A stretch of 64,000 nt of DNA from Candidatus Kaiserbacteria bacterium (GCA_029288865.1 JARIGM010000023.1:3039-67038), one strand, 5' to 3'. Numbered from the stretch's first letter, positions 5,902-34,211 are shown. Notes: generated by a model not told the origin, from the letters alone. A program made the numbers and translations.

Positions 5902-7056
5902 CTATTTTGCATCCTGCTCAGCTTCGTGGGCCAACCCGATGGCTACGAGTTCCTCGGCAATTGTGCGGGCTGCATCAGAGCCGCCGTATACAGCTCCCTT
6001 CTCTCCCATGCTTTGTGCGAGCTCAGCATCGGTTGCGATGCGGTGAATCTCGGATGCAAGCACGTGCGGCGTCATGTTCCCTTCCTCCAGCACGACGGCA
6101 GCGCCCGTATGTGCATAGCTGTATGCGTTCGTGCGCTGATCGTGACTTATCGATTCTGGAATCGGAATGAGAATCGCCGGCTTCTTCCAGAATGCGATTT
6201 CTGAAATTGAGCCAGAGCCTGCACGCGAGACGATCAGATCCGCTGCACTTGCCGCTTGGCGAAGCGAATCTGCTGCGAAGTACGGCACCGCGTGATAGCG
6301 AGATGCATGCGCACTTTTCTCGAGGATAAGCTTGCTCGTCGGGCCAACCTCAGCGAAGTTGTCTTTGCCGGTCTGATGAATTACGTTCATTGTCTCGACG
6401 AGTTCAGTTAATCCTGCGAGGAGCATGTCGTTGATCTTCTTCGAACCGAGCGAACCTCCCAGCACGAGTACCGTCGGGACAGTGGGATCGAGTCCGAGGC
6501 TCTGCATCGCTTGCTCTTTATCGGTCAGAGCGAGAATCTTGCGCACGGGCGTGCCGATCACGGCAACGTTTTTCTTTGCTTTCGCTGGTACGTCTTGTGC
6601 CGCACTCTCATACGCAACACCGATGCGGTACGCGAATCTCGCCGCAAGTTTGTTCGCGCGGCCCATGCGCGTGTCTGATTCATGGATAATCACGGGAATG
6701 CCGAGATAGTGTGCGGCGAGCACGGTCGGGACGCTCGTATAGCCGCCCTTCGAGAACACAACATCCGGATACAGCTTGAAGAGCGTGGACCAGGCCTTCA
6801 TGATGCCGGAAAGGGTCACGAAGATATCGGTGAAGTTCTGAAAGGAGAAATACCGGCGCACCTTCCCTGCTGGGATCGGGACGAACTCGATGCGCGTGGC
6901 GAAGAGCGCGTCTTGGTCGAATGGCGCGGGCGCGAACTGGAACATCTGCGGATCCACGAGCTGGCTCTCTGCCACGATGTCATGGACCGCTTCTGCGACA
7001 GCGATGATGGGATAGAAATGGCCGCCGGTGCCGCTTCCCGTAAACACGATCTTCAT
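5902..7056 (-). CDS. murG: UDP-GlcNAc:lipid I N-acetylglucosaminyltransferase MurG
   Basis: 384 aa; N-terminal GSGTGGHFYP glycine-rich motif and overall GT28 architecture. Confidence 0.9.
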   Translation of the reverse strand: MKIVFTGSGTGGHFYPIIAVAEAVHDIVAESQLVDPQMFQFAPAPFDQDALFATRIEFVPIPAGKVRRYFSFQNFTDIFVTLSGIMKAWSTLFKLYPDVVFSKGGYTSVPTVLAAHYLGIPVIIHESDTRMGRANKLAARFAYRIGVAYESAAQDVPAKAKKNVAVIGTPVRKILALTDKEQAMQSLGLDPTVPTVLVLGGSLGSKKINDMLLAGLTELVETMNVIHQTGKDNFAEVGPTSKLILEKSAHASRYHAVPYFAADSLRQAASAADLIVSRAGSGSISEIAFWKKPAILIPIPESISHDQRTNAYSYAHTGAAVVLEEGNMTPHVLASEIHRIATDAELAQSMGEKGAVYGGSDAARTIAEELVAIGLAHEAEQDAK

Positions 7057-7089
7057 AATATCTCTACTTTAGCACGGTCAATCTTATAC

Positions 7090-8220
7090 TTACGGAGTAT
7101 TAAATTTGGTATATGCCTTTGTAATCTCGACTTCTTCATTCTGAATTTCTTGTTCGAGCTTTGCCATCTGAGCTCGCTGCTCGTTAGTTATTGTCCCAGA
7201 ACCAATCTGCTTGCTGTAAGTTAGCAGGCTCGATAACGTATTTGCCTGTTTTTGTTGGATAGCAAGAAGATTTGTATATTTTGTTAGGCTATCCAATTGT
7301 CGGATTTGGTCGATATTTGGCAGCTGCTTGCTGTACTCAGTACGAAGTTTAGATATGTCATCAAGCATCTTATTGTTGATATCTTGTCTTGCTTGAATCT
7401 GGTTCTGAAGTGCCTGGATATCTGCATCATCCGGATGCTGTTTTTGCAGGAAGAGTTGATAATCGCTTGAAATATTGCCTGTTAGGGTAGAATACTGTTG
7501 CTCCAATTGGGTTTCGTCCTGCGTAATCTTATTAATTTTTGATGCGTCCAATGCGTTTGTAGCCATGAATGCAATAATCAATACCGGAAGCCCAATGAAA
7601 TGCGCGATTCGAAAATTCGCCTTTGTAGTGGGAGCTTTGAGTGCAAAGACGAAATAAGCTGCAGTTGCCAAATTCACTATTACCCCACTCCATTCATGGC
7701 GGAGACCACTAAGGACGGTTTCCACGAGACTATATGTCAATACTATATAGAAAAGTGGGGTGGGAGCGGTCTTTTTCTTCCTGAAGAGTTGAATTGCTGC
7801 ATACAGAAGTGCAATATTTGAAACAATATCAAAGATTACATAGATGTTTGTTAAGGTAGGACCTGCCATGTAGTCATTTAAAAACCACGTGGTTGATGAG
7901 GATATAAAAAAGAAAAGTATTACGAATCCGAGTGTCCAATTGCGACGTCGGTCCAATGATTCTGTCTCAGATAAGTTGTTTGGCTCCGTCCGCTGAGTTT
8001 CGAGATTGTTGTCGGCATGCTGCCTGCTCCTGATGAAGATGGCTATAAGGAATATTGCAACACACAGGCCCAGGAGATCATTTATCATAAGCGCGTGATC
8101 TATCTGAGGCAGGCTCGTTGGGTGGGCAAATGTAGTGGCCAGTCCATTAAGATTCATGGCAACGAGAAGAATCCCGATTACTCCTGCAATAATTCCTCCC
8201 CAGCGCGAGCTTTTCTTCAT
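7090..8220 (-). CDS. polytopic membrane protein with C-terminal Q-rich coiled coil, hypothetical
   Basis: 376 aa; about 7 TM helices then an LQNQIQARQDINNKM-type coiled coil; AT-rich; first gene of the low-GC island. Confidence 0.5.
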   Translation of the reverse strand: MKKSSRWGGIIAGVIGILLVAMNLNGLATTFAHPTSLPQIDHALMINDLLGLCVAIFLIAIFIRSRQHADNNLETQRTEPNNLSETESLDRRRNWTLGFVILFFFISSSTTWFLNDYMAGPTLTNIYVIFDIVSNIALLYAAIQLFRKKKTAPTPLFYIVLTYSLVETVLSGLRHEWSGVIVNLATAAYFVFALKAPTTKANFRIAHFIGLPVLIIAFMATNALDASKINKITQDETQLEQQYSTLTGNISSDYQLFLQKQHPDDADIQALQNQIQARQDINNKMLDDISKLRTEYSKQLPNIDQIRQLDSLTKYTNLLAIQQKQANTLSSLLTYSKQIGSGTITNEQRAQMAKLEQEIQNEEVEITKAYTKFNTP

Positions 8221-8497
8221 GGATTTATTAGATATCGGTTATGTAATCATTATACAATATACAAATTAAACTGTCTGCCATCGGAAATACTCCTCCTCTT
8301 ACAAGAGGTGGCAGTTTAATCGCATCATCTGGCTCGTGCAGAACGGGCTCTTAGAGTTCGCCAAATATAATAGTCGGGCCATGGACAGCTGCTCTCGTCT
8401 CTGGGTAGTTGATTGTCACTTATCTATTGCATCTAAGAGCTCGTTTTCAAGACATGCTAAACGTTCGGGCTCGTTTTTGGCGTGAGAGGAGAAGTAA

Positions 8498-8944
8498 TTA
8501 GTACTTTTCAAAGCCTCCGAAGCTTGCATCTGGGTTGAACTCACGTAATGAATTCATGATTTTTTTAAGTCCGTACAAACGGTATATCCAGCTATAGAAA
8601 TTGTATTTAATTAAATTATCTTCTTTTTGGAAGACTAGCTGGGTGATAGATTTTTGCAGAGTTGCTGATCTAAGAGTTCCCTGTGGGATCACTACAGTTT
8701 CTCCAAACCATTCATAGATGGTTACGGATTTCATTCGTGTATCTATAATTACCTTTCTCACAGAACCAAGTATCATTCCGGGCAAACATACCAAGGGTGT
8801 GATCCATAAAAACGGATAAAAGAATTGAATATCTCTGTAGCAAATAGCATCTATCAGAACGATAACTGGAAAAAATATCAATACTAATATTGGTGTATAA
8901 AATTGGTAGGAGTGTATCGTATATATTTGTTTATCTTTCCACAT
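8498..8944 (-). CDS. small membrane protein (possible orphan immunity protein)
   Basis: 148 aa, 2-3 TM helices, AT-rich, lies in the RHS toxin/immunity island. Confidence 0.4.
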   Translation of the reverse strand: MWKDKQIYTIHSYQFYTPILVLIFFPVIVLIDAICYRDIQFFYPFLWITPLVCLPGMILGSVRKVIIDTRMKSVTIYEWFGETVVIPQGTLRSATLQKSITQLVFQKEDNLIKYNFYSWIYRLYGLKKIMNSLREFNPDASFGGFEKY

Positions 8945-8947
8945 AAT

Positions 8948-9265
8948 TTAATTGCTGTGCTGCGAATATTGATAATATTGTGCAGTATTGCCAATGTATA
9001 CAGTTCCGACAGCAATTATCCATCCGCCTATAACTATCATTACACCAAAGAAAGTTACGAGGATTCTATAGAAGCCCCATTTTGCTCGCTCTCTACTTCC
9101 CTCTAGAAATATTCCATCCATGAAAGTTTGGAATTTTTTATCATATGCATCGGCCATCGTTTTCCCAAATTCTTTACTATGCCAGATCACATAGAATCCC
9201 AAAATAAATAATGGTATCGAAATTATGATGTGCGTTAGCTGTATTGGGGCTATTGTTATCGGCAT
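8948..9265 (-). CDS. small membrane protein (possible orphan immunity protein)
   Basis: 105 aa, 2-3 TM helices, 3 bp from the previous ORF. Confidence 0.4.
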   Translation of the reverse strand: MPITIAPIQLTHIIISIPLFILGFYVIWHSKEFGKTMADAYDKKFQTFMDGIFLEGSRERAKWGFYRILVTFFGVMIVIGGWIIAVGTVYIGNTAQYYQYSQHSN

Positions 9266-9284
9266 AATAATTAATCCTCTCTAT

Positions 9285-9680
9285 TTATAGGAGAGAGACC
9301 TCTGGCGCTGTGTTAGAGATTATGTCTAACACGTGCGTATCGGTCTTGATTAAATAGTGAATCATTTTCCTGTCTTCGTAAATTCCGTTACTCTCATCAA
9401 TTAGCCATGAGATTAGATTAGAATTAGTTGAGGTACAGAATTGCCATTTGGGGTCTTCGAACTTTGACTTGATCCACATTCTGGTACGACCTGTCTCATC
9501 AATATTTTGATATAAATAATAGCGACGATATTTTATAGTAAGGGTTTTTGATTCATCAGACTCATCCTTAAGCTGAATAACTAATCCTTCATCATCTTGA
9601 TGGACATCTGTAATTAGAAAATTACCCGTAGTCTTTGCTCGGTCTTGCAATAATCTTAGTTCCATCCTTTTGTGTGCCAA
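9285..9680 (-). CDS. putative RHS-toxin immunity protein (orphan paralog)
   Basis: 131 aa; C-terminal half about 70% identical to ORF 15227..15613 (FEDPKWQFC.STNS.LI.WL.EES.GIYEDRKM.HYLIKT), the gene directly downstream of the giant RHS toxin. Confidence 0.5.
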   Translation of the reverse strand: MAHKRMELRLLQDRAKTTGNFLITDVHQDDEGLVIQLKDESDESKTLTIKYRRYYLYQNIDETGRTRMWIKSKFEDPKWQFCTSTNSNLISWLIDESNGIYEDRKMIHYLIKTDTHVLDIISNTAPEVSLL

Positions 9681-9722
9681 CCTGAACCTCGTCCCCCATA
9701 TAAAGACCTTTTCATATTTCCT

Positions 9723-10070
9723 TTAGCTCCTCGCAAGTCTATCTTCTTCCTTACCTTTGTCGGTACTCTCAAACCAATAGAACTCATCCGAATTTATTAC
9801 TCCAGGGTTCTCTACTTGTTGCATAGATGCTAAAAGTTCCTTTCTGAGTTTACCTTTATTCAAAACAGTAGGAGTGTAAGTATTATCAGTGGAGTTATAT
9901 TTTAAACAATTTAATTCTCCAGCATTTACGAGTTCCGCCAGAGTATCTACTATTTCTATTGCTTGCTCCTCCGTCTTTCCTTCAGATGAAGACCAGAACT
10001 CCCAAGAGCCGTATGCATCTTCAGAGCATAATTCAAGGATGTTTGATCGAATTTTGTTCCTGTTTATCAT
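9723..10070 (-). CDS. putative immunity protein for the orphan RHS-CT toxin 10078..11712
   Basis: 115 aa acidic cytoplasmic protein immediately downstream (8 bp) of the RHS C-terminal cassette; the position is that of a toxin/immunity pair. Confidence 0.45.
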   Translation of the reverse strand: MINRNKIRSNILELCSEDAYGSWEFWSSSEGKTEEQAIEIVDTLAELVNAGELNCLKYNSTDNTYTPTVLNKGKLRKELLASMQQVENPGVINSDEFYWFESTDKGKEEDRLARS

Positions 10071-10077
10071 ATATTAA

Positions 10078-11712
10078 TTATAATCCTTCTACTGAAGGGG
10101 TGGAATCTTCCTCATCTATATTAATACTCGGATTGTCTAATGTAGGGTTCCCTGCCAGTGGAAACGGCCCTGACTTAGTACCTTTCTCCGAAACACGTCC
10201 ATATGGTCCCCGTTTAATAGGGTTGGGATCGTTTGGGTTACCATTTTGTATGCGTACTTGGTCGCCAGGCCTATCTGGAACAGGATATCTCGTTCCCTGT
10301 TGGTTACTTGAGGGGTTACCTGGAATTCCCTTCTTTTTCATGATTTCGTCGATCTCCTGGGGTGTTTTGCCGGTTAATTCGCCCGGTGTTGGTAATGCTG
10401 GATAAGCAGAATTTGAAAGTATATGGCTTGGTGTTGAGAAGGAGTTACTTTGTACTCCGCTTACATTCGCCCCGAAATGCACCGCCGGAATATTTATAGA
10501 CTGCACAGCCTGTGCAGCATTAGAAGCTGCTTGTTGGGATGCATGTTGAATTGCCGGATTACTCAGGATTGCCTGGAGAGTAATAAGAACTGCCAATAAG
10601 GCAATGGCTATTGGTATTTCAAATGCAGTAAACTTTCCTGTAGGGTCTTTCTTTGTAATAGGATTATCCTCGGCATATGAGTAACTATTTAAGCTCTGAG
10701 GGTCTTCCAAGATTTGACTCTTAGGATCACCCAAGAAGACTGGGTCTTCAGATAAGAATTGGCCTCTCGCAGAATCCTGGTATCTTGCATTCAAATAGTT
10801 AAGTTGGGTATTCCCGTCATACTGCTCGCCAATAAATTTCCTCTTTGTTCCGGTATACGTTCCGGCAAGCGTATCGGTACGGAGTGCGCCATACGGGTAG
10901 TAGTGGAGTGCTTCGTTAAGCAGTCCGGCGCTGTCTGTGAGTGCATTTGCACCGCCCAAGTGATCTGGATGGACATAGTAAGTGGAGGTAGTGGTTCCCA
11001 CGGTCGGGGTCGTAGTTGCAGGCTTAAAGGCAGCAATTGCCATACTCCAATTCTGAGTTGCAGCGCCGGTATACGTGTCGGAGATAGAACCAGCGGCTCC
11101 CGCAACTTGATAACTTGCCGCACCTAAAGTCGTTGAGGCAACGTTGTTGAACAGCGAGGTGCGATTTGTAGTAGCAGTGGTGGTTGAGTTTCTGCTGAGT
11201 GTTGCCACCACGAGATCGCCCGTTAAACGCGTGGTAACCGAAGCGGTGGGACTGCTCGTAGTACCTATAGCTGTTGAGGTAGCATCAAGGCCTGATTGAC
11301 TTGCTCCCGAGTAATCCGAAAGCCCAAACTTAAGCGCATCAGTCGCCCCATTAACAGTAACTGAGATGGTGTTAGTACCGGATGGCGGTGCAACCAGATA
11401 CCAGAGCTCAGAAGCCATAGTTCCGCTTAGGCTGCTTGCGGCTTTAATCAGCGGCATGCCCGCATAGGTAGCTGAGGAGATCGATCCCGTGCCGGCTATA
11501 TGCTGCAATATATCGGCCGTGAGGACCAAAAGGCGGTTAGTACCAAACGAAGTAGTATGAGTCCAGCTCTTCGTCGTGGTCGCGCTTGCTCCGAGGGTGA
11601 AGTTCGTCGTGACTGCATTTAACAGTAGTGTCGAAGTCGCGGCTGTCGTGGTACCGACCGTATTCGGGCCATATCTATCAGGAGTTAGCTGGTAAGACAA
11701 TGCCCCATCCAT
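10078..11712 (-). CDS. orphan RHS C-terminal cassette (T/S-rich domain + RHS core end + divergent C-terminal toxin tip)
   Basis: 544 aa; residues about 20-390 are about 75% identical to residues about 2290-2660 of the 2780-aa RHS protein ([16 protein letters not shown]...[10 protein letters not shown]...DNPITKKDPTGK), then a TM segment and a different tip; own TG-TATACT promoter upstream. Confidence 0.8.
   Translation of the reverse strand: MDGALSYQLTPDRYGPNTVGTTTAATSTLLLNAVTTNFTLGASATTTKSWTHTTSFGTNRLLVLTADILQHIAGTGSISSATYAGMPLIKAASSLSGTMASELWYLVAPPSGTNTISVTVNGATDALKFGLSDYSGASQSGLDATSTAIGTTSSPTASVTTRLTGDLVVATLSRNSTTTATTNRTSLFNNVASTTLGAASYQVAGAAGSISDTYTGAATQNWSMAIAAFKPATTTPTVGTTTSTYYVHPDHLGGANALTDSAGLLNEALHYYPYGALRTDTLAGTYTGTKRKFIGEQYDGNTQLNYLNARYQDSARGQFLSEDPVFLGDPKSQILEDPQSLNSYSYAEDNPITKKDPTGKFTAFEIPIAIALLAVLITLQAILSNPAIQHASQQAASNAAQAVQSINIPAVHFGANVSGVQSNSFSTPSHILSNSAYPALPTPGELTGKTPQEIDEIMKKKGIPGNPSSNQQGTRYPVPDRPGDQVRIQNGNPNDPNPIKRGPYGRVSEKGTKSGPFPLAGNPTLDNPSINIDEEDSTPSVEGL
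10400..11700. repeat. about 1.3 kb duplicated segment: orphan RHS cassette is paralogous to the 3' part of the main RHS gene (about 15900..17200)
   Basis: The protein alignment is near-collinear at about 75% identity across the T/S-rich and core-end regions; this gives a substrate for homologous recombination and tip switching. Confidence 0.7.
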
Positions 11713-11742
11713 AAGATGAGGCTTCCCACCAGTATATCACAA

Positions 11743-11761
11743 ATATTCCATTTTGGAATAT
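11743..11761. promoter_or_regulatory. perfect palindrome ATATTCCA-N3-TGGAATAT in the divergent promoter region between the XRE gene and the orphan RHS cassette
   Basis: Seen directly in the sequence; 8-bp arms and 3-bp spacer; also overlaps a TGGAATA direct repeat. Confidence 0.5.
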
Positions 11762-11787
11762 CCCAATATGGAATACAGCCTATAGGT

Positions 11788-12006
11788 ATGAAGAAATCCA
11801 TTCATACCGATGAACAGGCAATGTTTGTGAAGCGACTTCGCAAAGCACGGATGGAGGCTGGCCTTACACAAGTAGAAGCTGCTGCGAAACTGGGAGCTAG
11901 TCAGTCTTGGATATCAAAAATTGAACTCGGTGAGCTTCGGGTTGATGCAATATCACTTAATCGCATTGCAAAACTCTACGGTAAACCTGTTAGCTATTTC
12001 CTGTAG
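11788..12006 (+). CDS. XRE-family helix-turn-helix transcriptional regulator
   Basis: 72 aa from the internal ATG; LTQVEAAAKLGASQSWISKIELGE is a classic Cro/C1 HTH; the palindromic operator lies just upstream. Confidence 0.75.
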   Translation: MKKSIHTDEQAMFVKRLRKARMEAGLTQVEAAAKLGASQSWISKIELGELRVDAISLNRIAKLYGKPVSYFL

Positions 12007-12152
12007 CCAGACAGAAGAAGCCGAGTGGTCGGTCTTCTGTCAGCCGGACTAGTCCGGGCTTCGCCATGCACTTTGCGGTTACGCAAATCCAATGGCACGC
12101 CTTCCGGCCGCTGCCTACCCTATCGCACTTCAGGTGTTCTGCGAAGGGGCAA

Positions 12153-12335
12153 CTAATGTGCTACTTTAACACGGCGTTTTATAGGATTAGGAGATATAAG
12201 TACTTCACGTCCGGTCTTTCGAGAATGTGCGGTATGAGCAATCTTAAAGCCCTGCACTTGCCTCTTTCCGTATAGCTCTCGAACATACGGCGTATCGTCA
12301 TATGTCATTACCCAATCAAGAATCGAGGTATCCAA
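12153..12335 (-). pseudogene. C-terminal remnant of a Dam-family (D12 class) N6-adenine DNA methyltransferase
   Basis: 60 aa ORF; VMTYDDTPYVRELY...REVLISPN resembles the Dam C-terminus (V.ISN.DT...RE.Y...); no N-terminal catalytic region is present. Confidence 0.45.
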
Positions 12336-12414
12336 AAAGTTTGCCAGATTCTCGTGATTCTCCTTCGGCTATGACAACGAAGAATACACTCTCAAAGATA
12401 AACAGATTGAGCTA

Positions 12415-12810
12415 TTGAAACAGATTCCCCTTCTGCACAAGAAAGAGTTGGTTGACGTAAGTCTCGCGCAGTATTGCGAATCTACGAAAGAGCAATTTAA
12501 GACCCTGAAGGATTTTGAGTCTAGAAGGCAATTTCTACTGGATCACATTGATAGGGTTATAGTTGCGAAGAATTCAATATCTATTTACGGCTATGTTCCC
12601 GTTCGACTTAAGGTATATGAAGATCCAGATCAGCCAAATGGTGCAGGTAAGATTTGGTTTTGCATTGAGAAAGAGCTAGATCGCACTCGCTTAGTCGCCA
12701 AGTTGCAAAATAGAGACAAGAAACAAGATGTGTTAGACGGTACAAAAATTACTTGGAATGAATACAAACAATTATCTGAAATCAGAACTGGAGGTTTATA
12801 TACGCTCTAA
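12415..12810 (+). CDS. hypothetical protein or gene fragment (no ATG; TTG start in track; frame open back to 12358)
   Basis: 131 aa ORF; in-frame upstream extension FSFGYDNEEYTLKDKQIELLK with no start codon suggests a truncated gene. Confidence 0.3.
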   Translation: MKQIPLLHKKELVDVSLAQYCESTKEQFKTLKDFESRRQFLLDHIDRVIVAKNSISIYGYVPVRLKVYEDPDQPNGAGKIWFCIEKELDRTRLVAKLQNRDKKQDVLDGTKITWNEYKQLSEIRTGGLYTL

Positions 12811-12841
12811 ATTATCTATCTGCTGTTACGTTAATGCGGTT

Positions 12842-13117
12842 CTAGAGTTTTATCCCAGATAAGTAAATTCCACCGATAAGAACGAGACCAAGCCCAATCG
12901 CTAAAGCATAGCTGGTAGCAGTCATAAACATGCCGTCAGCCATTACGTCACTACCTTGAGAATTGTGGTAGAGATTCTTTTTAATCCAGCCTACAATTCC
13001 TGTTTTCATACCAGGATACCAATTAAAGTATGCAACTACCGACAACAAGAGAATGCCAACCAAGGTCACTACTACTGGTTGGTAATAAACAATTAATTGG
13101 TTGAATAAATTTTGCAT
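12842..13117 (-). CDS. two-TM membrane protein, putative immunity protein for RHS-CT fragment 13119..13970
   Basis: 91 aa, two hydrophobic helices, 1 bp downstream of the toxin fragment. Confidence 0.45.
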   Translation of the reverse strand: MQNLFNQLIVYYQPVVVTLVGILLLSVVAYFNWYPGMKTGIVGWIKKNLYHNSQGSDVMADGMFMTATSYALAIGLGLVLIGGIYLSGIKL

Positions 13118-13118
13118 A

Positions 13119-13970
13119 TTAGTTCTTTTTGTTATTAGTACTCTTATTGGAGGATGATTGCAAGGTGTTTACCAACTGAGTAAGGAGATGAACTTCCTGG
13201 GTCAGGAGACTTATCACATCCGATACCCCACTTACCCTACCTCCTGCGAGTGTAGGTGCTACGTTCATGGCGAAGTTTCCTGCACTTGAATAGGCAGCAG
13301 ATGGATTCTGATTATTAATAGATCCAACAGTGTTTATGGCTGAAGGGATTCCAAGCGCAGAACTACCAGCAAGGAAAGCATACCCAGCGGATTGAACCAG
13401 TCTACCTGCAAGGAAGTAAGTTCCTACTCCTGCTCTTAGAGAAGTAATCGCCACTGTTGAAGTAAGCGCCGCATCAGCTACAGGAGCCGAGAATAAGCCT
13501 ACCACTGCACCTGTTCTATATGGATGATCAAGCGCGGTACCCCAAGCTGGATTCACCTGAGGCAAATAAACTGTCGCATTATTAATCTCACCATTAAAAC
13601 TAGCCCAAGATTGTTGTCCTGTGAGAAATTCTTGATACCACAATCCCGATGGATCAGATTTTGAAATCGGATTGTCTCTACCGTAAGAATACGAATTTAA
13701 TGTTTGCGGGTCAGAAAGAACCGATGTTTGATCCGTCTGAGTGAGACTCTGTAATCTCTGTTGGTTTCCAATTGCTAGGAATGTAGGGTCCTCCGAAAGG
13801 AACTGGCCACGGGAAGGGTCTTGATACCTAGCGTTGAGATAGTTCAAATTCGAACTGGCGTCATATATCTGTCCAATATAAATGGGGCTACCGACACCTG
13901 CTCCTATTTTTGAGTAGTGTATACAGCCTTCCTCATTTGCATCCAAGACTCCATTTTCAAGCCACACCAA
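13119..13970 (-). CDS. orphan RHS C-terminal fragment with Gly/Ala-rich (membrane-active?) toxin tip
   Basis: 283 aa; [21 protein letters not shown]...NSYSYGRDNPISKSDPSGL matches the RHS core end and DPxGL motif of the main RHS, followed by a G/A/S-rich tail; TTG start, truncated N-terminus. Confidence 0.7.
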   Translation of the reverse strand: MVWLENGVLDANEEGCIHYSKIGAGVGSPIYIGQIYDASSNLNYLNARYQDPSRGQFLSEDPTFLAIGNQQRLQSLTQTDQTSVLSDPQTLNSYSYGRDNPISKSDPSGLWYQEFLTGQQSWASFNGEINNATVYLPQVNPAWGTALDHPYRTGAVVGLFSAPVADAALTSTVAITSLRAGVGTYFLAGRLVQSAGYAFLAGSSALGIPSAINTVGSINNQNPSAAYSSAGNFAMNVAPTLAGGRVSGVSDVISLLTQEVHLLTQLVNTLQSSSNKSTNNKKN

Positions 13971-14082
13971 GCGTTCGAAGTCGGTCTCAACCTGAGAAGG
14001 AGCGAGAGTGCTGAAGCGGGTTTCCAGATTAAATTCAGAAGGTTGTTTTGGGTTTTGGAGGAAATTTACACTCCATTGTAAT

Positions 14083-14724
14083 TTATGACATTTTCGTCGA
14101 AGAATGTGGAATTCCTAGTGCAAATTGCAGCTTCAGGCCTTCTGGTAAAGCTATGGTTTGAGCTCCTACTCGTAATATTTTGTGCTCAAAATCTCCAAGA
14201 TCAATATCCAGCTGGTGACCAGGCTTAGTTAAATCTGCGGCGGGATCCATAAATGCATTTCCTTCCTCATTAATAAAAGAAAAGACTATAACCATAGGCT
14301 CTGCTATCTGCTCGTTACTCAAAATCAAATCGCCTTCCTCAGGTTCTACTATAGTTAGTGCACTAGTATCCCGAAAATAAAGACTGAATAGGTGTCTGTT
14401 GATCGGATGTTCAACGTTAAAATGGATACGTAAAATGCCAGACTCTTCCCTCCCTTCTTGTTTTATCTTCAGTGTACGCTTTTCAAAAACGTACGATATT
14501 TCAAGACTCTCTCCAATTGGCACATTCTTTGTCACCGTTGGTGAACTAAAATCAGCTTCGTGTATTGATCCTTTGAATTGCCGTGGAAAAGTCTGGAATA
14601 AGTCCAGTTTATTATTGAACGATATTTTTAGTTCATAATCCCCGCCATGTAGCGGCATTATCAGAAGAGTGCCAATAAGCGCTCCATTCTTTAAAACTAG
14701 TCGACTTTTCCTAAGTGGGTGCAT
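14083..14724 (-). CDS. hypothetical protein (island cargo)
   Basis: 213 aa, AT-rich, no recognisable motif. Confidence 0.4.
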   Translation of the reverse strand: MHPLRKSRLVLKNGALIGTLLIMPLHGGDYELKISFNNKLDLFQTFPRQFKGSIHEADFSSPTVTKNVPIGESLEISYVFEKRTLKIKQEGREESGILRIHFNVEHPINRHLFSLYFRDTSALTIVEPEEGDLILSNEQIAEPMVIVFSFINEEGNAFMDPAADLTKPGHQLDIDLGDFEHKILRVGAQTIALPEGLKLQFALGIPHSSTKMS

Positions 14725-14733
14725 GACTAAACC

Positions 14734-15024
14734 CTAATCATTCCACAAATTAATATTTTCTTTTTTAATTTCTGCGAGCCATTTCGAAAATTCTCTATCA
14801 TCAATATACTTATATTCATCTCTGTCTTTTTCACTTGGGTCCTTGGCTACAAGAAACATTTTCTCGTTGATTTCATCTAAAAGATCCGCCTCATTCGGTT
14901 CTAATACTTTGTTTCTTTCTTCAGATTCAACGCCAAAATATAGTTCGTTGAATTGAGAATAGAATTCATCATAATCAATTCTATACTTGAGAAAGGAGTT
15001 GATCAAATCAGCAAATTCCTTCAT
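14734..15024 (-). CDS. small acidic protein, possible orphan immunity protein
   Basis: 96 aa, highly acidic, D/E/K-rich, in the toxin/immunity island. Confidence 0.35.
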   Translation of the reverse strand: MKEFADLINSFLKYRIDYDEFYSQFNELYFGVESEERNKVLEPNEADLLDEINEKMFLVAKDPSEKDRDEYKYIDDREFSKWLAEIKKENINLWND

Positions 15025-15226
15025 ATGGATTATTTTAATACTAATTTACTTAACTGGCTAACAAGGTTCGAGAGTTGACTCAAAATACCGCCGAGTCGTT
15101 GTAAATTTCCATTTGCGATATTGTTCGTCACTCCCATACCTACTCTCAAACCCCAAGAGAATAGTGTCCTCCATTTGCATCCCGTATTAGATGTAGCTCG
15201 TTTGATACGTTTACGAGTTTAATTTC

Positions 15227-15613
15227 TTATTTGATTATAGTGACTTTAGGCTCAACTTCGGAAATCACGTCTAGCACGTCTGTCCATGTCTTAATTAAAT
15301 AGTGGGTCATCTTTCTATCTTCGTAAATACCGTCACTTTCTTCTTTTAACCATTTAATTAAGCTGGAATTAGTTGATACGCAGAATTGCCATTTAGGATC
15401 TTCGAACTCAGCATGAGCCCATAGTCTTATACGCCCGGATTCATCTACATTTTTATATAATAAATATTGAGTAAAGGTTATTAAAATAGAAATAGAGTTC
15501 TCAGACTCTGCTTTAAGAAGAATCTTAAGCCCCTCGTGATCTTGATGTACATCAATGATAAAGAATTCCCCCACGAGGTCTTTCACGGGTGTCCAGTTAT
15601 TAAAAGTATCCAT
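15227..15613 (-). CDS. putative immunity protein of the giant RHS toxin
   Basis: 128 aa from the internal Met (MDTFNNW); the start is 1 nt after the RHS stop; paralog of 9285..9680; the longer 160-aa version in the track would overlap the RHS gene by 95 bp. Confidence 0.5.
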   Translation of the reverse strand: MDTFNNWTPVKDLVGEFFIIDVHQDHEGLKILLKAESENSISILITFTQYLLYKNVDESGRIRLWAHAEFEDPKWQFCVSTNSSLIKWLKEESDGIYEDRKMTHYLIKTWTDVLDVISEVEPKVTIIK

Positions 15614-15614
15614 A

Positions 15615-18600
15615 TTATTCATTATACCGAGTCTTTTCGATATCACCATTTGGTTTCTGTACCTCAAGTGTCGGACGTCCTTCTTTGCTCTGCGGCCGTA
15701 CGTTGACATTACTTCCGTCTTCTAGTTGACCAGCAGTAGTTCCATTTGGATATGTCTTAACATTCGTAGGATTAAGCTTTTTAAAATCTTGCAATGCTTG
15801 CGGGTAACCGCCATCCTTCTCTTTAAATGAAGTATCCCCGCCCAAGCTATTTTTTGCGAAATTAATATTTGTCGAAGGGATTGAATTTGAGGAGTAGGAC
15901 GGTACACCTTGAGTTGCAGGCGTAGAGAATGGATTGCTTTGAACTCCACTTACGGTACCTCCAAAATGCACTGCGGGAATACTTATTGAGGAAGCTGCTT
16001 GAGACACTCCATAACTTGCCTGCTGTAGCGAATGCTGAACTTGAACATTCGAGAGTATTGCAAGCAAGGCATATGCAGCAGCGAGCAGACCCACAATTAG
16101 TACCCCTTGAGGGCTTACAATGGCCTGCTTTCCATCAGGATCTTTTTTGGTTACCGGGTTATCATTCGCATAGCTATAACTATTCAAACTCTGTGGATCT
16201 TGTAAATTCTGTTGAGAAGGATTCCCCAAGAATACTGGATCTTCGCTCACAAACTGTCCTCTTTGTGGATCCTGATATCTAGCGTTCAAGTAGTTCAGAC
16301 CAGTAGTCCCGTCATACTGCTGCCCAATATATTTCCTCTTGGTTCCGCTATACGTTCCGGCAAGCGTATCGGTACGGAGTGTGCCATAAGGATAATACTG
16401 GATCGATTCATTAAGAAGGCCGGAACTGTCGGTAAGAGCATTCGCTCCACCGAGGTGATCTGGATGAACATAATACGTGGACGTGGTAGTACCATTTGTT
16501 GGCGTTGTAGTTGCAGGCTTAAAGGCAGCAATTATCATGCTCCAGTTTTGGGTTGCCGTACCGGTGTATGTATCGGAAATAGAGCCAGCTGCGCCTGCAA
16601 CTTGATAACTCGATGCTGCAAGAGTAGTAGAAGAGACGTCATTAAAGAGCGAAGTGCGGTTCGTGGTTGCGGTAGTCGTCGAGAACCGGCTTAGAGTTGA
16701 CTCCACAAGATCTCCGGCTAAGTGGCTCGTGACCGAAGCGGACGGATTGCTGGTGGTACCGGTTGCTGTTGACGTAGCGTCAAGCGGAATGAATTGGTTC
16801 ACGCCCGTGTAGTCGGCAAGAGAGAATTTGAGAGAGTCAGTCGTACCGCCAACCGTCACAGATACGGTATTTAATCCCGAAGGCGGAGCAACGAGATACC
16901 AGAGCTCACTCGCCATGTTCGAGGCACGAGTCGCTACCGCCTTGACAAACGGAATACCCGCATAGGTTGCTGAAGTGATAGCGCCTGTGCCAGCTACATG
17001 CTGGAGAATGTCTGCAGTAAGCACAAGGAAGCGGTTATTTCCAAAAGAGGTTGTGTGAGTCCACGACTTAGTGGTGGTGGCCGTGTTGGCTATGGAGGAA
17101 ATGTTAGTACTTGTAGCATTCAGGAGTGGTGTCGAAGTCGCGGCTGTCGTGGTGCCAATCGTATTCAGCGTGGCAACGAGAAGTCCGTTTGCGTAGATGT
17201 TCTTTGTTATGGTCGGACTCGCGCCTGCCGTGCTGCTGTAATACTTATTGGGATAGAACGTGGTTATTCCACCGTCCGTGGTCTGGACTCGGCTACCTGC
17301 ATAATCGTACAAGTACGTGGAAGTTGCTGAACCCTTCCCTACTTGTGCTAATTGATTGAGATAGTTCCAAACATAGTTGTATGTACCATCTGACGTCAGG
17401 TTTCCGTTATTGTCGTAGGCAAGCGTGCTGGTTGCCAATCCATACACGATAGACGTCGGTGCATGCGGATTCGCATAGTTGGTACCTATATTGCCTTGAT
17501 AATAATAGCCTCCTCGATCAGAACTCGTCGCAATGCCTCCAAGCGGATTGTAGGTGTATGAGCGGATGTATGGTGTCTGGAATCCTGCAAGCGTTGAACT
17601 TGCGAGAGTAAGTCGATTGAGCGGATCGTAGGTAAATGCTGTTTGCTCTGATCCATTCACGTCATCGAGAATGCTCGTGATATTTCCTGCTGGATCATAG
17701 GTGTAATGGAAACTCTGGATGTGTGTACCGTCATCAGCCATTGTAAAGTGATCCGTGCCACTCGACCACGGACTCGGATTGCCTGCACTATCCCAGAGGC
17801 GCATGCGGTAATAATATGTCGTATGATCGAGCGCGAGCGGAGTGCCCGTATAATACAAGTCCTGGGTCTGATTTCCTGCTGATGTCGTTGGTGAAAGGCT
17901 GAGTTTGCCGCTATCCCATAATGGGCTGGTGAAGCTGCTGCTTGTCGCGGTCTGAATCTGGTAGTACACCGCAGTGTCTCCGAGGTCGGGATCATTATAT
18001 TGAGCGCTAAATCGAGGTGAAATATCTGTTACATTTATCGGATTAGTCTGATCTTCTGCCATGAGCTGTGTAGTGGTACCGGGCGCCACGTTTGGCAAGC
18101 TGTAGGATATTTCTAGGTAAGGGTCTTGTGACGTACCTGAGTTACGGGAGCTTGAAAAGGTTACTCGGGAGAATAGCCAATGAAAGTTATTATTGACGGC
18201 CTCATTGTCTGTCGAGTCGTGGCCTTCTCGTAAGCAGAGTTTCGTATACCCAGTGGTTGAAATCCAGCTCTTCCCCGCCGTTGTGAGAGGATAGGCTTGG
18301 TAGGTATTTACGGTCGAGCTTGCTATAGGCGTATCAATTGATCCCTTTGTCGGATTAGTGATAGCATCGCCACAAGCGCTTATATCAGAATTACTGAGTG
18401 TAGCCGGAGAAGCTTCGAAACCTTGATATACATTTATGTTCGAATATGCATCATTAAAAGCATTATCGGTGCTTTGAACATATGCATAGAGGGTTGATGA
18501 ACTGATTATAGCGTTATCTGGTAGTGCTGAAGTATCTATCGGCACAAAACTCCGCACGATGCTGAGATACCCGCTACCACTCGCGAACGCCTGAGAATCA

Positions 18601-21600
18601 ACTTGCAAGTAGAAGCCGCTATACTCAGCGTTTACGCCTGTGGTATCTGCATGCTGTGTTTCCCAAGAACCCGGATATGGCTGAGTCTCTACTTCCCCGT
18701 CTCCCGGTCCACCGAAGTTACTAAAGGTAAGGTCGGCTCGGACAGGATACTGTGCCTTAGCAAGCCAGCTGTACGGGATCAGCTTGGTGACATAGATACC
18801 ATCTGTCTTCAGTTGATAAGTTACTGATATCGGAATCTGATTGTTCGGATCGTCTTGGTTTGAGCCCTGCGCGCTCGGTTGCCAGATATACGCGAGTATG
18901 TCTTTTCCGCTGAGGATAGTCGCCTCGTTTGTGGTTGTAATAGTTTTCGCATCGCTCAAAAGTTTACCGTCTACCAGTATGTCAAGGCTGCCGGTGCCGC
19001 TTGCGGCTGCAAGCTTGAACGTTATTGCGTAGTTTGTAGCGGTGCCGGACTGTGTGGGTTCCTTCGTAAGAACGACATCCTTCTTCAAATACGAGTCGGT
19101 AGATGTGATTTCCAAATTAGCTCCACTGCCAAGCGCACCGGTATAGCTGAAGAGTGCACTTCCGTCTGGGTTTGTAGTTTCAATCGGCGCGACTGTCTTT
19201 GCTTTTGAATCCGCAAACGAGACCGTCATAGTTCCGGATTGGCCCGTGTAGGTAAAAAGATTAGAAGCGGAGCTTTTTGCTATTTTCGCTTGGTATGCGG
19301 CCTGCGTGATGTTTGTCGTGGTCTTCGCATCCATAATCTTGGTAAATGAACTGAGCGGCTGGAATGCACCTGAGGCATCCTTGGCAAATTGCGGACCAGT
19401 ATGAAACTCCGTCTTGTACATATGATCGCCATTGGATGTGTGGCCGAGAAGGTAGGTCTTGGTATTCTCCGTCCGCGCGTTCTGTATTTCTATTGGATTT
19501 GTCGGTGATGCGAGCGACATATCCTGCATCGGAGAGCTTTGTACTGCAAGAGCATTCTGCTGCGTCATCTGCATCGGAGCGAAGAGATGGCCAGTACCGG
19601 GGCCGACAGTCTTCCGATACGTCAAGCGATAGAGCGCGTTCGGATTATACGTGTTGAAAGTCTCGACTGAATTGCCGTCTCGTTGATATGTAATCTGTCC
19701 GTCTGGACCATACTCGATATCAGCAATGATGGCCTTCGTCGTGGTCGCAGGCTGTTCTAATTCGCTAATGGAACCGAGTTGCCCCAGGTTATTGTAAAGA
19801 TAATAAACAACTGCATTGTCAGGATAGGTTTGGGTGATGGTATTCCCTTGTAGGTCGTATCCATACTTGGTGACAAATGAACCATTGCCTACCGCCTCTG
19901 TCTCTTTATTGGTCCGACCGAGTGGATCGTAGGCATATGTAGTAGTGGCTGAGTTAGTAGCAACACTGCAGAGTTGACCGATTCCGAAGCTGCATGAGTC
20001 ATAGGTAAAGATCTTCTCTGTGCCTGGTATGACTGTGTAGTCCTCGGTCACTTCTCTGTTTAAGGCATCATAGGTGTACTGAATCGTCTGTGATTTAGGG
20101 TCTACGACGGATGTCTTGTTACCTGCTGCATCATATGTGTAGGTCCAGGTACCAAAGCTTGAATCACCTGGCGCGTGGAGATCCTGAGCTGTTAATTCTC
20201 TACCCAAACCGTCATAGGTAAAGAAGCGAACATCACCCGACGCATCGGTTAGAGAGGTGAGATTATTGTTGCCATCATATGCATATTGGGTACTGTAAGC
20301 CGAAGCACCATTATGCTCGATTACATCTATGAGGTTTGTATAGATATCATAGACAAGATCTTTCGAGTGACCGTTGGCATCTGTTATCGTGGTGGTCGCG
20401 ACATTATACGCGTAGGTCGTACTTCCCACTGAATTAGTAATTGATTTCGCCCGATATATTGGGTCGTAGGAATAGACGGTGTACAAGTTCGCGTTTGTAG
20501 TAGGTGTCGTACTACCTGCTCCGTTACTGAAATACGGCAACGATTGCTTGCTTAAAAGCCCAAGACTGTTGTACTGGTAATCCTTTGTCGGATAATCACT
20601 GCTTCCGAAGCCCGGACCAAGACGGGATTGGAATATGCGGCCTAGGCCATCCAGATATGAATATTCCAATGTGCTGGTCGCAGCTGAGAGGTATCGCGTC
20701 TTGTATAAGTATGGGAATCCGGTATCGACATAGGTATAGCGGGTCTGGAGCACAGGTGCTGAAGTGCTTGCCGTCGAATCTGGCTGATATTGCAACAGTA
20801 TTCGACCCAGGCCGTCATACACGTTTGATGAAGTGCTCCCGTTTGGGTCGGTCGTGGTCGCAACCTTACCTGTAGCGTAATCATAAGATGTATATGTCTT
20901 CTGGTTCAGTGGATTGGTAGTAGTCGCTACATACAGACCGTATGGGTCATACATAAACGAAGTCGTGTTGCCCCGAGCATCCACTTGGTTCGTCGGTAAG
21001 CCAAATGCATTATATGCAGAAGTCGAGCTCGCATACATTGGAGTACTCGTTCCAGATACCCAACGCGCTACTTTAGTAAGGTTACCAAGCACTGCGGTAC
21101 CGAGTGGACTCGAATCGTAATAGTACTGCTGCTCATTTACTTTATTTCCAGCCTGATCCTTTTTCGTTTTGTCGGATTGAAGAACGATATAGGGAGCTGT
21201 ACTCGAGGCATATAAATTCGTAGTGGTGTACGAGTCGTTGCCCACGTCGGTGAACGTTCCGTCGTCATTGCCATTTACCAGACCCCAATTGGTTGAGCTT
21301 GCTATGACGCCAGTTCCAGTGTCATAAGCATTCGTGGTTGCAGTGTCTCGATGGGAGGTGCCACCGTCGTACATGGAATCAAGCTGCTGAAGTAATTCGA
21401 CAAAAGTCCGTCCTCCACTGAGGCTCGCCATATCCCACTTGAAGATGTCTTTCTTGTACAGGTTGTTTGCGTTATCGTATGTCTCTATGCGGTAGGCTTT
21501 ACCTATCTTTGATGGGTCGTCCTGATACTGACCATGCGAAGTATCGGAGGTACTATTCCCTTGATCGTAATAGGTGTTCGTAACATTCCCGGCCGGGTCA

Positions 21601-23957
21601 GTCTTTACTATTTTCTGGAACCCGCCGAACTGCCTGTTGAACGCGTTGCTGTAGTGATAAGCCCCGTTTTGGTAAGAGTAGTTCGTACTCGAGACGGTTC
21701 CGAGTCCATTATCAAGCGTAATATTTGACACAGTATCAACCGAAACGCTCAGCTTCGGATTAAGTAATTGTCCACTGCTCAGATATAGCTGCGAAGACTG
21801 ATAGGTATAGTTCGCAGAACCACCTTCCGCAAATTTGATCTTTGATAGGAGATCGGGTGTCGAATCATTATTGACGTCAACTTCACCGGCAGAAGTATAG
21901 GCAAAAATGAGATCTGGTAGGTTATCGCCGTTCACATCGGCAATGCGTACACTGTCATCGAGATTATCCGTGGTAAATGTGAGCGGCGATTTCCAGGATG
22001 AATCTTGTGTCCATCCGGATCCATTGTTGATCCACGCGGTCGTGACTCCTGTGCCTACATGACTCCACGACTGAAGTACATCTACTAATCCATCGCCGTT
22101 CACGTCCACAAATCGCACGCCATCATCATAATAGTTGGTTGAGGTGTCGTACGTGCTCATGGGAGCTGGCGCTACCCATTGTGGATCCTGTATCCAACCG
22201 CTGCCGGTATTGATCCATATTTCGTTATTAGAAGATGTACTTAATGCGTATGATTGTACGAGGTCTGGAAGACCATCGCCGTTCACGTCTACCATACGCA
22301 CATAATTATCTGAACCATTCACGCTAAAATTAACGGGAACCGTCCAATTGCTCAACGTCCAGCCAGAACCGTTGTTCAGGTAGACATATGAAGAGCCGTC
22401 TGCCGATTTTACGATGTCAGTAAGACCATCGCCGTTCACGTCGATATACTGGCCACTCGTTGCAAAACCAGAATCGTTTTGTACGACTGAAGGGATACCC
22501 CACGTTGAGGAAGCAACCCAACCGTTACCGGTATTAAGGTAGGTTACTCCACCTACAATCTCGTCCGTCAGGTGGTCGCCGTTTACATCGGCATAGCGTC
22601 CGAGGCTTGTAGAGGTTGCCGCACTCAGGGTGGTTGAAGCTGTCCATGTCGTACCAGTGTTTATGTATACTGCGCTGGTTCCGGCACTGGTATTCACTTT
22701 TACAAAGTCCACCATCGAGTCGCCATTCACGTCTACGAGAGAGACGCTTGAGTCAAATGGCACAGGAGGAACATAAGAAGTTGATTGATTCCAGCTTTTC
22801 GTTCCTGGTTTGTACGATAACTGTACTGCTGGCAGCGTTGTTGTGGCTCCATTTGCATAACCTGATTCGAGAATAGAGCTCAGCAAGGAACGCGTCGTAT
22901 CTACCCCAGCCGTGTACGAAAGAGCATAGTCATGCGTTAGTACGTTGTTTATTCGGATCAAGATATCACTTATTCTGAATCGTGAAGTCACCGGAAAGCC
23001 AGTCGCAGTAGATGTGGCAATATCCGAACGGGTTGTCGTCGCGTAATCAATCTCGAAGATGCCAGCCGTCGTGCTGCTGTTGGTATATAGAATTTTAAAG
23101 GGATATATCTCACCTTTATCTTTCGAATATTGGTACGTTATGTAATTCCCATTCGGATCTCGTACTTCTTGAAGCATCCACTTATATATCTGAGTGTTGT
23201 CTGTAGGATTATCTTGTCGAGCAGCGGTGGTAGTTCCGAACGTGTAAGTATTCCCATTTTTATCAGTGAGTGTCCAGGATGTGGTACTCGCTACGTATTG
23301 GTAATGATTGAAGTTTCCATTTTCGACTCTCGCTCCATATGTTGTTGAGCTCGCCATGATTGGATATAGCTCACCATCAAGTGAGCTATAAAAGTAATTT
23401 TGAGAATAGAGCGAATCAGTCCCCTTCCTATTTATACGCACGATGTATGGAATATTGGTGTCCCAGCCATATCCCATCACATTTACATTTGCACTAGGCT
23501 GACTGGTGTACTTGAGGTCTACCGAAGGCTGCAATCCATTTCTTCCAGGAGGAATTTGAATTGGAAATGTGTAAATGAGAGAGCCGGTCACTGGGTCGGT
23601 CTCACTATGAAATTTAGAATCAAGAGTGTTATGCGTAAGATCAGGGGCGGGTGCGCCGCTCAAGCTTGAGAATGTTTGTGTTGACTGAGTTGCCGTCGGC
23701 GAACTCTGTTGGTCCGTGACAGTTGACTTGTCAACAGACGTGGGCGAAGCCGCGGTGTCTTGACTGGCGGGAGTATTAGAATTAACCGTCGTATCAGAAG
23801 AAGTTGTAGGTGTTTGAGTTTGGTCTGTCGGTGGCGAGCTATCCGTTGTTTGTGCGTGTCCAATGAATGGAGAAATGGAGAAGAGAAAAATTAAGAAAAT
23901 TACCGCTCCTTTTTGTAGCAGAATTGTCTTGTTGCCCCATCCATAAGCATTCTTCAT
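15615..23957 (-). CDS. giant secreted RHS-repeat polymorphic toxin (SpvB-like N-domain, FG-GAP/VCBS repeats, YD/RHS repeats, RHS core, variable C-terminal toxin)
   Basis: 2780 aa; signal peptide; [17 protein letters not shown]...GYGWD SpvB/TcB-like motif; six or more (V/I)DVNGD(G)L.D repeats; many YD repeats; [10 protein letters not shown]...[12 protein letters not shown] core end (DPxG autoproteolysis motif) followed by a TM segment and a tip of about 170 aa. Confidence 0.9.
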
Positions 23958-24052
23958 GGGCTTACCTATACGCTACCCCGCGCATCTCTGAAGCTGTACT
24001 GTTCAGCTGGGGATAACGTTGGGCTAAAATACCACGTGTTGCAATCACCCGT

Positions 24053-25162: not shown

Positions 25163-25163
25163 G

Positions 25164-33536: not shown

Positions 33537-33624
33537 GCCTCTACGATACCATGAACCGAGTCTTGAGAGAAAGCGTTTTTAGTGGTATGGTGCGGAGACG
33601 TATGAATATGATTGGAGGCGGAAC

Positions 33625-34158: not shown

Positions 34159-34175
34159 ATGGGATGGATGGCGAT

Positions 34176-34211
34176 AAAAAAAGCGAGGCTTACACCTCGC
34201 TTTCTTTTTTG
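34176..34211. terminator. bidirectional rho-independent terminator (A-run, AAGCGAGG-loop-CCTCGCTT, T-run)
   Basis: Seen directly; ends the plus-strand deaminase gene and abuts the 3' end of the minus-strand tRNA-Tyr. Confidence 0.6.

Follow-up and report, generated by a model that had tools for sequence, protein, structure and literature searches.

The 64,000-nucleotide stretch of DNA analysed here (Candidatus Kaiserbacteria bacterium, GCA_029288865.1, JARIGM010000023.1:3039-67038; hereafter the window) carries on its minus strand a cell-wall gene cluster in which ftsW and murG lie 16,996 bp apart. The core genes on this strand follow the order dac, mraY, ftsW, the intervening block, murG, gltX, M23 peptidase, Nramp and VIT1. 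A sequence-only reading of this DNA had described the block as a toxin/immunity island of the RHS (rearrangement hotspot) type, distinct in composition and inserted between two genes that are normally adjacent. The domains, synteny and gene linkage found in the current study agree with that description, the toxin and immunity functions being predictions from the sequence. The principal features are listed below; coordinates are counted from the first letter of the window, and GC3 denotes guanine plus cytosine (GC) content at third codon positions.

26249-27427, minus strand: dac(S11), D-Ala-D-Ala carboxypeptidase (Pfam)
25164-26252, minus strand: mraY (Pfam)
24053-25162, minus strand: ftsW, SEDS family (Pfam FTSW_RODA_SPOVE, E 2e-98; GC3 0.65)
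7057-24052, no strand assigned: the island, DNA of foreign composition lying between the start of murG and the stop of ftsW
15615-23957, minus strand: main RHS/Tc-like polymorphic toxin gene, 2780 residues (SpvB, FG-GAP, TcdB_toxin_midN, RHS_repeat, Ig_Rha78A_N, Rhs_assc_core; identical to database protein P0001)
23853-23957, minus strand: predicted Sec signal peptide, cut before QT (by eye: positive n-region, hydrophobic core, small residues at the cut)
23112-23594, minus strand: SpvB/TcB N-terminal domain, residues 122-282 (Pfam PF03534, E 8e-18)
21573-22463, minus strand: FG-GAP beta-propeller repeats and TcdB middle/N region, residues 662-795 (Pfam FG-GAP_3; TcdB_toxin_midN, PF12256)
16131-16397, minus strand: RHS-associated core, residues 2521-2609 (TIGR03696 Rhs_assc_core, E 3e-14), ending ...KKDPDGK
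15915-16127, minus strand: pre-toxin segment, a hydrophobic helix and linker (Kyte-Doolittle maximum 2.44 over 19 residues)
15618-15833, minus strand: T1 toxin tip, the last ~72 residues, not in Pfam (689 clusters; AlphaFold2 predicted local distance difference test score, pLDDT, 85.6)
15227-15649, minus strand: imm160 (P0121, 140 residues), putative immunity gene to T1 (follows T1-type tips on three backbones)
5902-7056, minus strand: murG (Pfam Glyco_transf_28 and Glyco_tran_28_C; GC3 0.66)

For the synteny comparison, 13 loci were obtained through MurG from species-representative genomes and 80 through FtsW from metagenomes, and the window genes were placed in them by tblastn. Both ftsW and murG were present in 76 loci from the candidate phyla radiation (CPR) or Saccharibacteria-like genomes, counted as fetched and not de-replicated. 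In all of these murG follows ftsW after 13-1128 bp (median ~36 bp, and at most 136 bp in 61 of the 76), as had been assumed for the undisturbed cluster, and no island gene was matched in any of them (tblastn, E 1e-5). No relative with the same island in the same place was found among the 76 loci, and RHS homologues lie elsewhere. FtsW of the window aligned to its relatives over residues 1-367 of 369, and MurG over residues 1-383 of 384, showing that both proteins are intact and untruncated. FtsW identity to the related CPR loci was 60-73% over residues 1-367. MurG identity was 53-63% in the closer loci (those with FtsW at ~60-73%), where murG comes directly after ftsW, and 40-56% in more distant loci. 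The closest MurG and FtsW relatives were 57-73% identical and came from metagenome-assembled genomes (MAGs) labelled Candidatus Saccharibacteria, Parcubacteria and Paceibacterota. The host is thus an uncultured Patescibacteria/CPR bacterium, Saccharibacteria-like and without a close sequenced relative. The order dac-mraY-ftsW-murG-gltX-M23 was kept in the closer relatives. In this string (window 24053-27427, and relatives) murD is missing between dac(S11)-mraY and ftsW-murG, and gltX, a tRNA synthetase gene, lies directly after murG in the window and relatives.

The short spacer between ftsW and murG is not always empty. Unrelated cargo of 251-1128 bp fills it in 15 of the 76 related loci (among them L001, L003, L018, L020, L023, L028, L030-L032, L044, L046, L048, L053 and L059). 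NUDIX hydrolases were confirmed by Pfam in three of the loci tested, and the gap open reading frames (ORFs) of L030 and L044 resembled the NUDIX gene of L053 by eye (no Pfam scan). The other cargo consists of a cupin, an EEP (endonuclease/exonuclease/phosphatase) protein, Phd and ParE as a toxin-antitoxin pair, a gene resembling those of type IV pilins, and two unknown proteins of ~360 residues. Because unrelated small genes occur there in 15 of 76 loci, the spacer is a recurrent insertion hot spot in the clade and not a strictly conserved junction. In one lineage (L042, L043 and L050) type IV pilus genes follow ftsW, and murG is absent within 8.9 kb. The gene after ftsW in this lineage (L043:8051-16929, also L042 and L050) encodes a 3D-domain-like protein, recognised by eye, and PilB/PilC/pilin-like genes come next. 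The sequence-only reading had spoken of the splitting of an essential, conserved operon; the separation of the two genes stands, but strict conservation does not, given the 15 occupied gaps and the lineage lacking murG after ftsW. Such a hot spot is useful for locating accessory genes in fragmentary MAGs, and is a caution against treating cell-wall gene order as fixed.

The island differs from its surroundings in composition by three measures, which bears out the contrast that had been claimed. Its GC content is 0.446, against 0.517 in the remainder of the window, and 1-kb bins range from 0.37 to 0.50 in the island and from 0.52 to 0.57 in the flanks. GC3 is 0.32-0.47 in every island gene and 0.59-0.66 in the flanking core genes. 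Tetranucleotide profiles of four island bins correlate with the rest of the window at Pearson r 0.05-0.37, compared with 0.68-0.92 for all other bins. The shift is confined to the two spacers of 33 bp and 95 bp at the borders (7057-7089 and 23958-24052).

The presence of a giant RHS toxin in the inserted DNA, also part of the sequence-only reading, is supported by the domain architecture of the 2780-residue protein. A Ser/Thr-rich linker follows the signal-peptide-like N-terminus, and behind the SpvB, FG-GAP and TcdB regions lies an RHS/YD shell (PF05593 RHS_repeat, six copies, E 3e-18; TIGR01643 YD_repeat, three copies) with an Ig-like insert, Ig_Rha78A_N, at residues 1963-2066. The 38-nt DNA repeat families D3 and D4 at 21901-22463 correspond to the FG-GAP repeats. 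Rhs_assc_core was found in the main gene and in both of two truncated RHS genes of the island, orphan544 and orphan283 (see below), which end in tips named T3 and CT2; the motifs ...KKDPDGK, ...KKDPTGK and ...KSDPSGL were read by eye. In the main protein DPDGK at the end of the core is the expected autoproteolytic boundary. The last 170 residues comprise the hydrophobic helix and linker, followed by the 72-residue T1 tip, and the pre-toxin segment is 63-73% identical to those of orphan544 and the homologue P0004. PAAR and DUF4150 domains were not found in the main protein (Pfam, NCBIfam), type VI secretion system (T6SS) genes were not found among the window ORFs scanned, and a Pfam scan of ORFs from the 64-kb window revealed no TcA-like injector gene.

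Further details of this protein concern the region around the core. A Thr/Ser-rich segment of ~250 residues without a family match lies just before it (16398-17165, RHS residues ~2265-2520), and is duplicated in orphan544 (10903-11665) and in the orphan cassette of L096. A strongly hydrophobic or glycine-zipper-like helix directly after DPxG occurs here (in the segments 15915-16127 of the main gene and 10426-10632 of orphan544) and in many other CPR RHS proteins (P0004, P0007, P0031, P0045, P0052, P0088, P0092 and others). The variable junction of this locus is located ~75 residues past DPxG, after ...FSTP, and not at the motif.

A HMMER search with T1 gave 689 representative clusters at E<=1e-3, with the match always at the extreme C-terminus, and the trunks of ten T1 proteins that were scanned were of RHS, DUF6443 or PT-HINT type. 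P0092 and P0086, whose pre-toxin segments differ, have tips with 67% and 50% identity to T1. An AlphaFold2 model from a 39-sequence alignment was confident and gave a beta-alpha-beta5 domain, and the invariant or near-invariant residues are D34, R64, S67, T73, R87 and Y88. A gene of the imm160 family lies directly after the T1 tip in L098 (48% identity, E 5e-45) and in L100 (38%, E 8e-31). Since the family follows T1 on three RHS backbones (window, L098 and L100), T1 and imm160 are regarded as a putative cognate toxin-immunity pair.

The T3 tip is 61% identical to that of P0073, and CT2 in its first part matches the tip of the full-length RHS protein P0032 at 52% identity. As judged by these matches T1, T3 and CT2 are modular, each recurring on other RHS backbones. 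Other C-terminal tips in the main-RHS family (precomputed Pfam) include Tox-REase-7, Ntox21, a barnase-type RNase, HNH and VanY/M15 peptidases. A word-indexed protein search returned three relatives of imm160 and one of T3. The T3 model was built from three sequences only (pLDDT 81). Fold matches of the tips were weak, no known toxin family matched the T1 or T3 sequences, and the unassigned small island ORFs and isolated C-terminal tips had no Pfam or NCBIfam match, even at E<=10. Sequence matches of T1, T3 and the T1 profile in the PDB were only to PPR/TPR repeat proteins, and were judged spurious. PT7(Bc), a polymorphic-toxin DNase of 76 residues from Bacillus cereus (PDB 8owu), has its catalysis assigned to D37 and H47 (bioRxiv 10.1101/2021.10.19.465003). 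T3 differs from it, being 13% identical and having no invariant histidine in its alignment, so that the histidine of the D37/H47 pair lacks a conserved counterpart among the invariant columns. T1, with its imm160 partner and 689 clusters, and T3 represent toxin families absent from Pfam, whose putative activity is directly testable.

Scoring of 8,000 word-sharing candidates yielded 507 homologues of the main RHS protein at E<=1e-20, and among the matches listed all but three had Patescibacteria/CPR source names. The five closest are 58-63% identical, and three of these (58-60%) were examined in context. P0002 follows GH18/methyltransferase genes, and downstream of it come genes for a reverse transcriptase and a serine recombinase. 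P0006, which is accompanied by an orphan cassette, is flanked by L33/MFS genes on one side and a DEAD helicase on the other, and P0004 is placed after ribonucleotide reductase genes. Because the closest homologues lie in other genomic contexts, the RHS locus is probably not ancestral at ftsW-murG and appears to move between sites and genomes. Taken with the synteny and composition, these results suggest horizontal acquisition of the 17-kb block, an RHS polymorphic-toxin locus that landed in the ftsW-murG spacer of a CPR genome in one or several steps (probability about 0.82). Two other family members lie beside mobility genes: P0092 adjoins a Y1 transposase, and the P0086 locus (L100:1899-18413), with a T1-type tip and an imm160 homologue, has a phage-type integrase gene on either side and an HTH_3 gene inside. 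The L100 locus is apparently an intact integrative version of such an island.

Several observations weigh against this explanation. The closest FtsW among the compared loci is only 73% identical, and a same-species empty site was not seen. Direct repeats, for which the regions ~7060-7100 and ~23958-24052 had been proposed, were not above chance in a repeat search and k-mer comparison (two shared 8-mers within +/-100 nt of the borders vs 0.87 +/- 1.1 expected). No tRNA was found within the island by tRNA and Rfam scans, the sole tRNA being a tRNA-Tyr at 34.2 kb, unrelated to the island, and no integrase domain was found in the island ORFs (Pfam, NCBIfam). The borders thus offer no att-like repeat, tRNA or integrase from which a mode of insertion could be deduced. 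The block is marked as a genomic island by its absence from the site in relatives and its deviant composition, and not by an integrase, repeats or a tRNA. Moreover, the sequence comes from one assembly, and the sole exact copy (P0001) is on a single National Center for Biotechnology Information (NCBI) contig of 109,778 bp.

The lack of a relative above 73% FtsW identity showing an empty site would also suit a history in which an RHS locus ancestral at ftsW-murG disappeared from every relative sampled, and in which its unusual composition is due only to the amino-acid bias of RHS proteins. RHS genes of the main-gene family have a GC content of ~0.47-0.52 irrespective of the GC of the host flanks (0.45-0.54), and part of the contrast of the big gene could therefore be intrinsic. 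However, the island's small genes other than RHS depart further still (GC3 0.32-0.43), and amino-acid bias does not account for GC at third positions. The island is also missing in all 76 related loci, its nearest RHS homologues lie in three other contexts and unrelated cargo occupies the spacer in other relatives, making ancestry at this site very improbable.

The remaining features of the acquired locus lie between imm160 and murG.

14083-15024, minus strand: orf96 and orf213, small AT-rich genes (GC3 0.32-0.33; no Pfam or NCBIfam match)
13119-13970, minus strand: orphan283, 5'-truncated RHS end with CT2 (Rhs_assc_core at residues 31-110, the last ~80 residues of the core)
12842-13117, minus strand: orf91, two-helix membrane protein, candidate immunity to CT2 by sequence and position directly after orphan283 (no family match)
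12415-12810, plus strand: ORF of 131 residues (match only in L098)
12153-12335, minus strand: Dam-like methylase C-terminal fragment (tblastn to phage DNA adenine methylase C-termini, E 3e-4 to 1e-2)
11716-12006, plus strand: XRE helix-turn-helix gene (HTH_3/HTH_31, E ~1e-11)
10078-11712, minus strand: orphan544, 5'-truncated RHS end (~345 residues of shell, core and pre-toxin; Rhs_assc_core) with the T3 tip (10081-10383)
9723-10070, minus strand: orf115, candidate immunity to T3 by position directly after orphan544 (no family match)
9285-9680, minus strand: imm131, orphan paralogue of imm160 (60% identity, blastp E 6e-51; similar also to the L098 and L100 immunity genes)
8498-9265, minus strand: orf105 and orf148, small membrane proteins as judged by sequence (GC3 0.36; no family match)
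7090-8220, minus strand: orf376, membrane and coiled-coil protein (GC3 0.43; ends 33 bp before murG)

Both orphan RHS C-terminal cassettes described in the sequence-only reading were recovered, and their tips differ. Orphan544 is 74% identical to the matching part of the main gene at the amino acid level; at the DNA level, 1057 nt align with the 3' end of that gene (72.6% identity), 33 of them in one exact run. Homologous exchange of orphan544 into the main gene is conceivable but could only be rare. Orphan283 is 59% identical to residues 2543-2609 of the main protein. Its DNA homology to the main gene extends over only 65 nt, in which no exact run exceeds 8 nt, suggesting that it is effectively a fossil, unable to swap into the main gene. 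CT2 is a Gly/Ala-rich hydrophobic C-terminus that looks like a membrane-active peptide, and a membrane protein gene is next to it. Imm131 is a putative spare immunity gene of the imm160 family.

The likeness of orphan544 to the RHS 3' end is an internal repeat of the sort that could mislead an assembler, and the sequence, known from a single contig of a metagenome-type assembly, changes composition abruptly at both borders. An assembly or binning artefact, in which a low-GC RHS contig of another organism was joined in, was therefore considered. The repeats are only 73% identical, which is too diverged to cause such an error, and two chimeric joins would be needed exactly in one spacer of ~36 bp, with ftsW and murG left complete and in normal order and orientation. 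In addition, almost every island gene points in the same direction as the flanks, and the closest RHS homologues also come from CPR genomes. An artefact is accordingly considered highly unlikely.

The segment at 11716-12810, comprising the XRE gene, the Dam fragment and the 131-residue ORF, is proposed to be mobile-element debris inside the array. The XRE regulator that had been predicted in the island was identified through HTH_3/HTH_31. For the predicted gene remnants, tblastn weakly supported a Dam-methylase tail at 12153-12335 at the E values listed, but no Pfam match was obtained. The sole match of the 131-residue ORF (35% over 48 residues, E 1e-8) was to L098:9579-9722, between an immunity gene and a Y1 (IS200/IS605-type) transposase, and it had no match in phages or plasmids. 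A serine-recombinase tail was tried as an identity for this ORF and rejected, as it has no phage or plasmid match and does not resemble the recombinase beside RHS in L094. At the murG end, a homologue of orf376 (33% identity, E 6e-62) was found just downstream of the related RHS gene P0004 in L097. On the basis of this neighbour and its GC3 of 0.43, orf376 is assigned to the island, probably as cargo and not as a core gene. The locus as a whole may have been built in steps, with arrival of the RHS gene, replacement of tips that left orphans behind, and then mobile-element insertion and decay at 11.7-12.8 kb.

The arrangement suggests how the acquired locus might operate. The N-terminal Sec signal would export the 2780-residue protein, in which the SpvB/TcB-like domain, FG-GAP propeller and RHS shell would form a cocoon round the C-terminal ~170 residues. 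The RHS-associated core would then cut itself after ...DPDGK, freeing the hydrophobic helix, linker and 72-residue T1. A neighbouring cell would receive T1, while imm160, encoded immediately downstream, would protect the producer and its kin. Orphan283/CT2 and orphan544/T3 would be toxin cassettes that were displaced or captured, each with a candidate immunity gene, and together with the spare imm131 they would make up the usual orphan array.

The same element could instead be aimed at the host bacterium of an episymbiont, as a Tc-like weapon by which the host is fed upon or killed, and imm160 would then only protect the producer itself. The window looks like part of a small, housekeeping-dense CPR genome, the RHS family is very common in Patescibacteria, many members have a hydrophobic helix after the cleavage site, and the TcB/TcC-like trunk (SpvB, TcdB_midN, FG-GAP) is as in toxins against other organisms. 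Orphans, a spare immunity paralogue and swapped tips with linked immunity are, however, the signature of competition among close relatives, and a TcA-like partner was not found among the Pfam-scanned ORFs of the 64 kb; a host-directed role is therefore thought unlikely. A related possibility is that the very common CPR RHS cocoons with a hydrophobic helix after the cleavage site serve an episymbiont in breaking into its host.

Rhs/YD-repeat polymorphic toxin loci with orphan arrays of C-terminal tips and immunity genes are known in E. coli, Salmonella and Serratia. The island resembles them in its YD shell, its core with a DPxG end, and its AT-rich tips beside a GC-richer core. As in those loci, an immunity gene comes immediately after the variable tip, and 5'-truncated orphan ends, each bearing a different tip, follow farther downstream. 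Unlike them, it has no PAAR, VgrG or T6SS context, having a predicted Sec signal peptide instead, and its trunk starts with SpvB, FG-GAP and TcdB_midN. The T1/T3 variable junction lies ~75 residues past DPxG, behind a shared hydrophobic pre-toxin segment, and the locus is in a CPR host inside a cell-wall gene cluster, which also sets it apart.

WapA of Bacillus subtilis is a Sec-exported RHS toxin of a single-membrane bacterium. Like WapA, the main protein combines a predicted signal peptide with RHS repeats and ends in a small putative toxin whose immunity gene lies next to it, and contact-dependent competition is the likely use of both. WapA, compared by description only, has cell-wall-binding repeats, no SpvB/FG-GAP/TcdB_midN and about half the size. 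The TcB-TcC cocoon of Tc (ABC) toxins (Photorhabdus TcdB2-TccC3, Yersinia YenB-YenC) is similar in having PF03534, PF12256 and FG-GAP_3 followed by RHS, which the island encodes in one chain. The island differs from Tc toxins in lacking a TcA-like injector in the 64-kb window and in having an immunity gene and orphan cassettes; to our knowledge Tc loci lack both of these. The teneurin C-terminal region, with a YD shell and then small alpha/beta domains, is also among the closest known systems. The element itself is ordinary, a polymorphic-toxin locus of the familiar textbook RHS kind that includes orphan cassettes. It is mildly unusual in its CPR host, its position in the mraY-ftsW-murG-gltX string and its two tip families that are not in Pfam.

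The sequence-only reading had also suggested that the island supplies promoters and terminators upstream of murG, and this was not supported. In the region 6800-24400, 27 sigma-70-like sites were counted vs 33.2 +/- 5.9 in shuffled sequences, a consensus that may not fit CPR promoters, and 15 terminator-like sites vs 13.2 +/- 3.6. No terminator-like site was found in the 33 bp separating orf376 from murG, and all plausible genes from 11712 down to murG share the orientation of murG. Transcription of murG by read-through may reasonably be regarded as at least as likely as transcription from island-supplied signals. A wider proposal is that the ftsW-murG spacer is a lineage-wide landing pad in Saccharibacteria-like CPR and that the island has become locked into an essential cell-wall transcription unit, which is rather improbable. 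If it were true, murG, gltX and the following genes would be transcribed by read-through from the co-oriented island, the island's expression would accompany cell-wall synthesis, and an imprecise deletion could not remove the island. A selfish weapon locus would then be stabilised by position, and not as an addiction module.

The island takes up ~17 kb in a genome of probably only ~1 Mb, a size estimated from related contigs (0.6-1.0 Mb). In the collection of papers searched, no description of RHS toxins in CPR bacteria was found. As the RHS family is widespread in Patescibacteria, interbacterial weaponry may be under-appreciated in CPR biology.

The remaining genes of the window are housekeeping genes, including ScpA, an M17 peptidase, several aminoacyl-tRNA synthetases, DnaK/DnaJ and the one tRNA-Tyr. 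The latter (34211-34295) sits between two class-Ib synthetase genes, TrpRS-like and TyrRS (32568-36326), and the GC content of the 1-kb bin at 34-35 kb is 0.44. A second low-GC patch (0.40-0.45) is present at 39831-41768, between a histidine kinase and an ABC exporter. It contains three minus-strand ORFs without a Pfam match, one of which (40663-41022) encodes a Cys-rich protein of 119 residues with a hydrophobic N-terminal segment, and may be another small acquired block.

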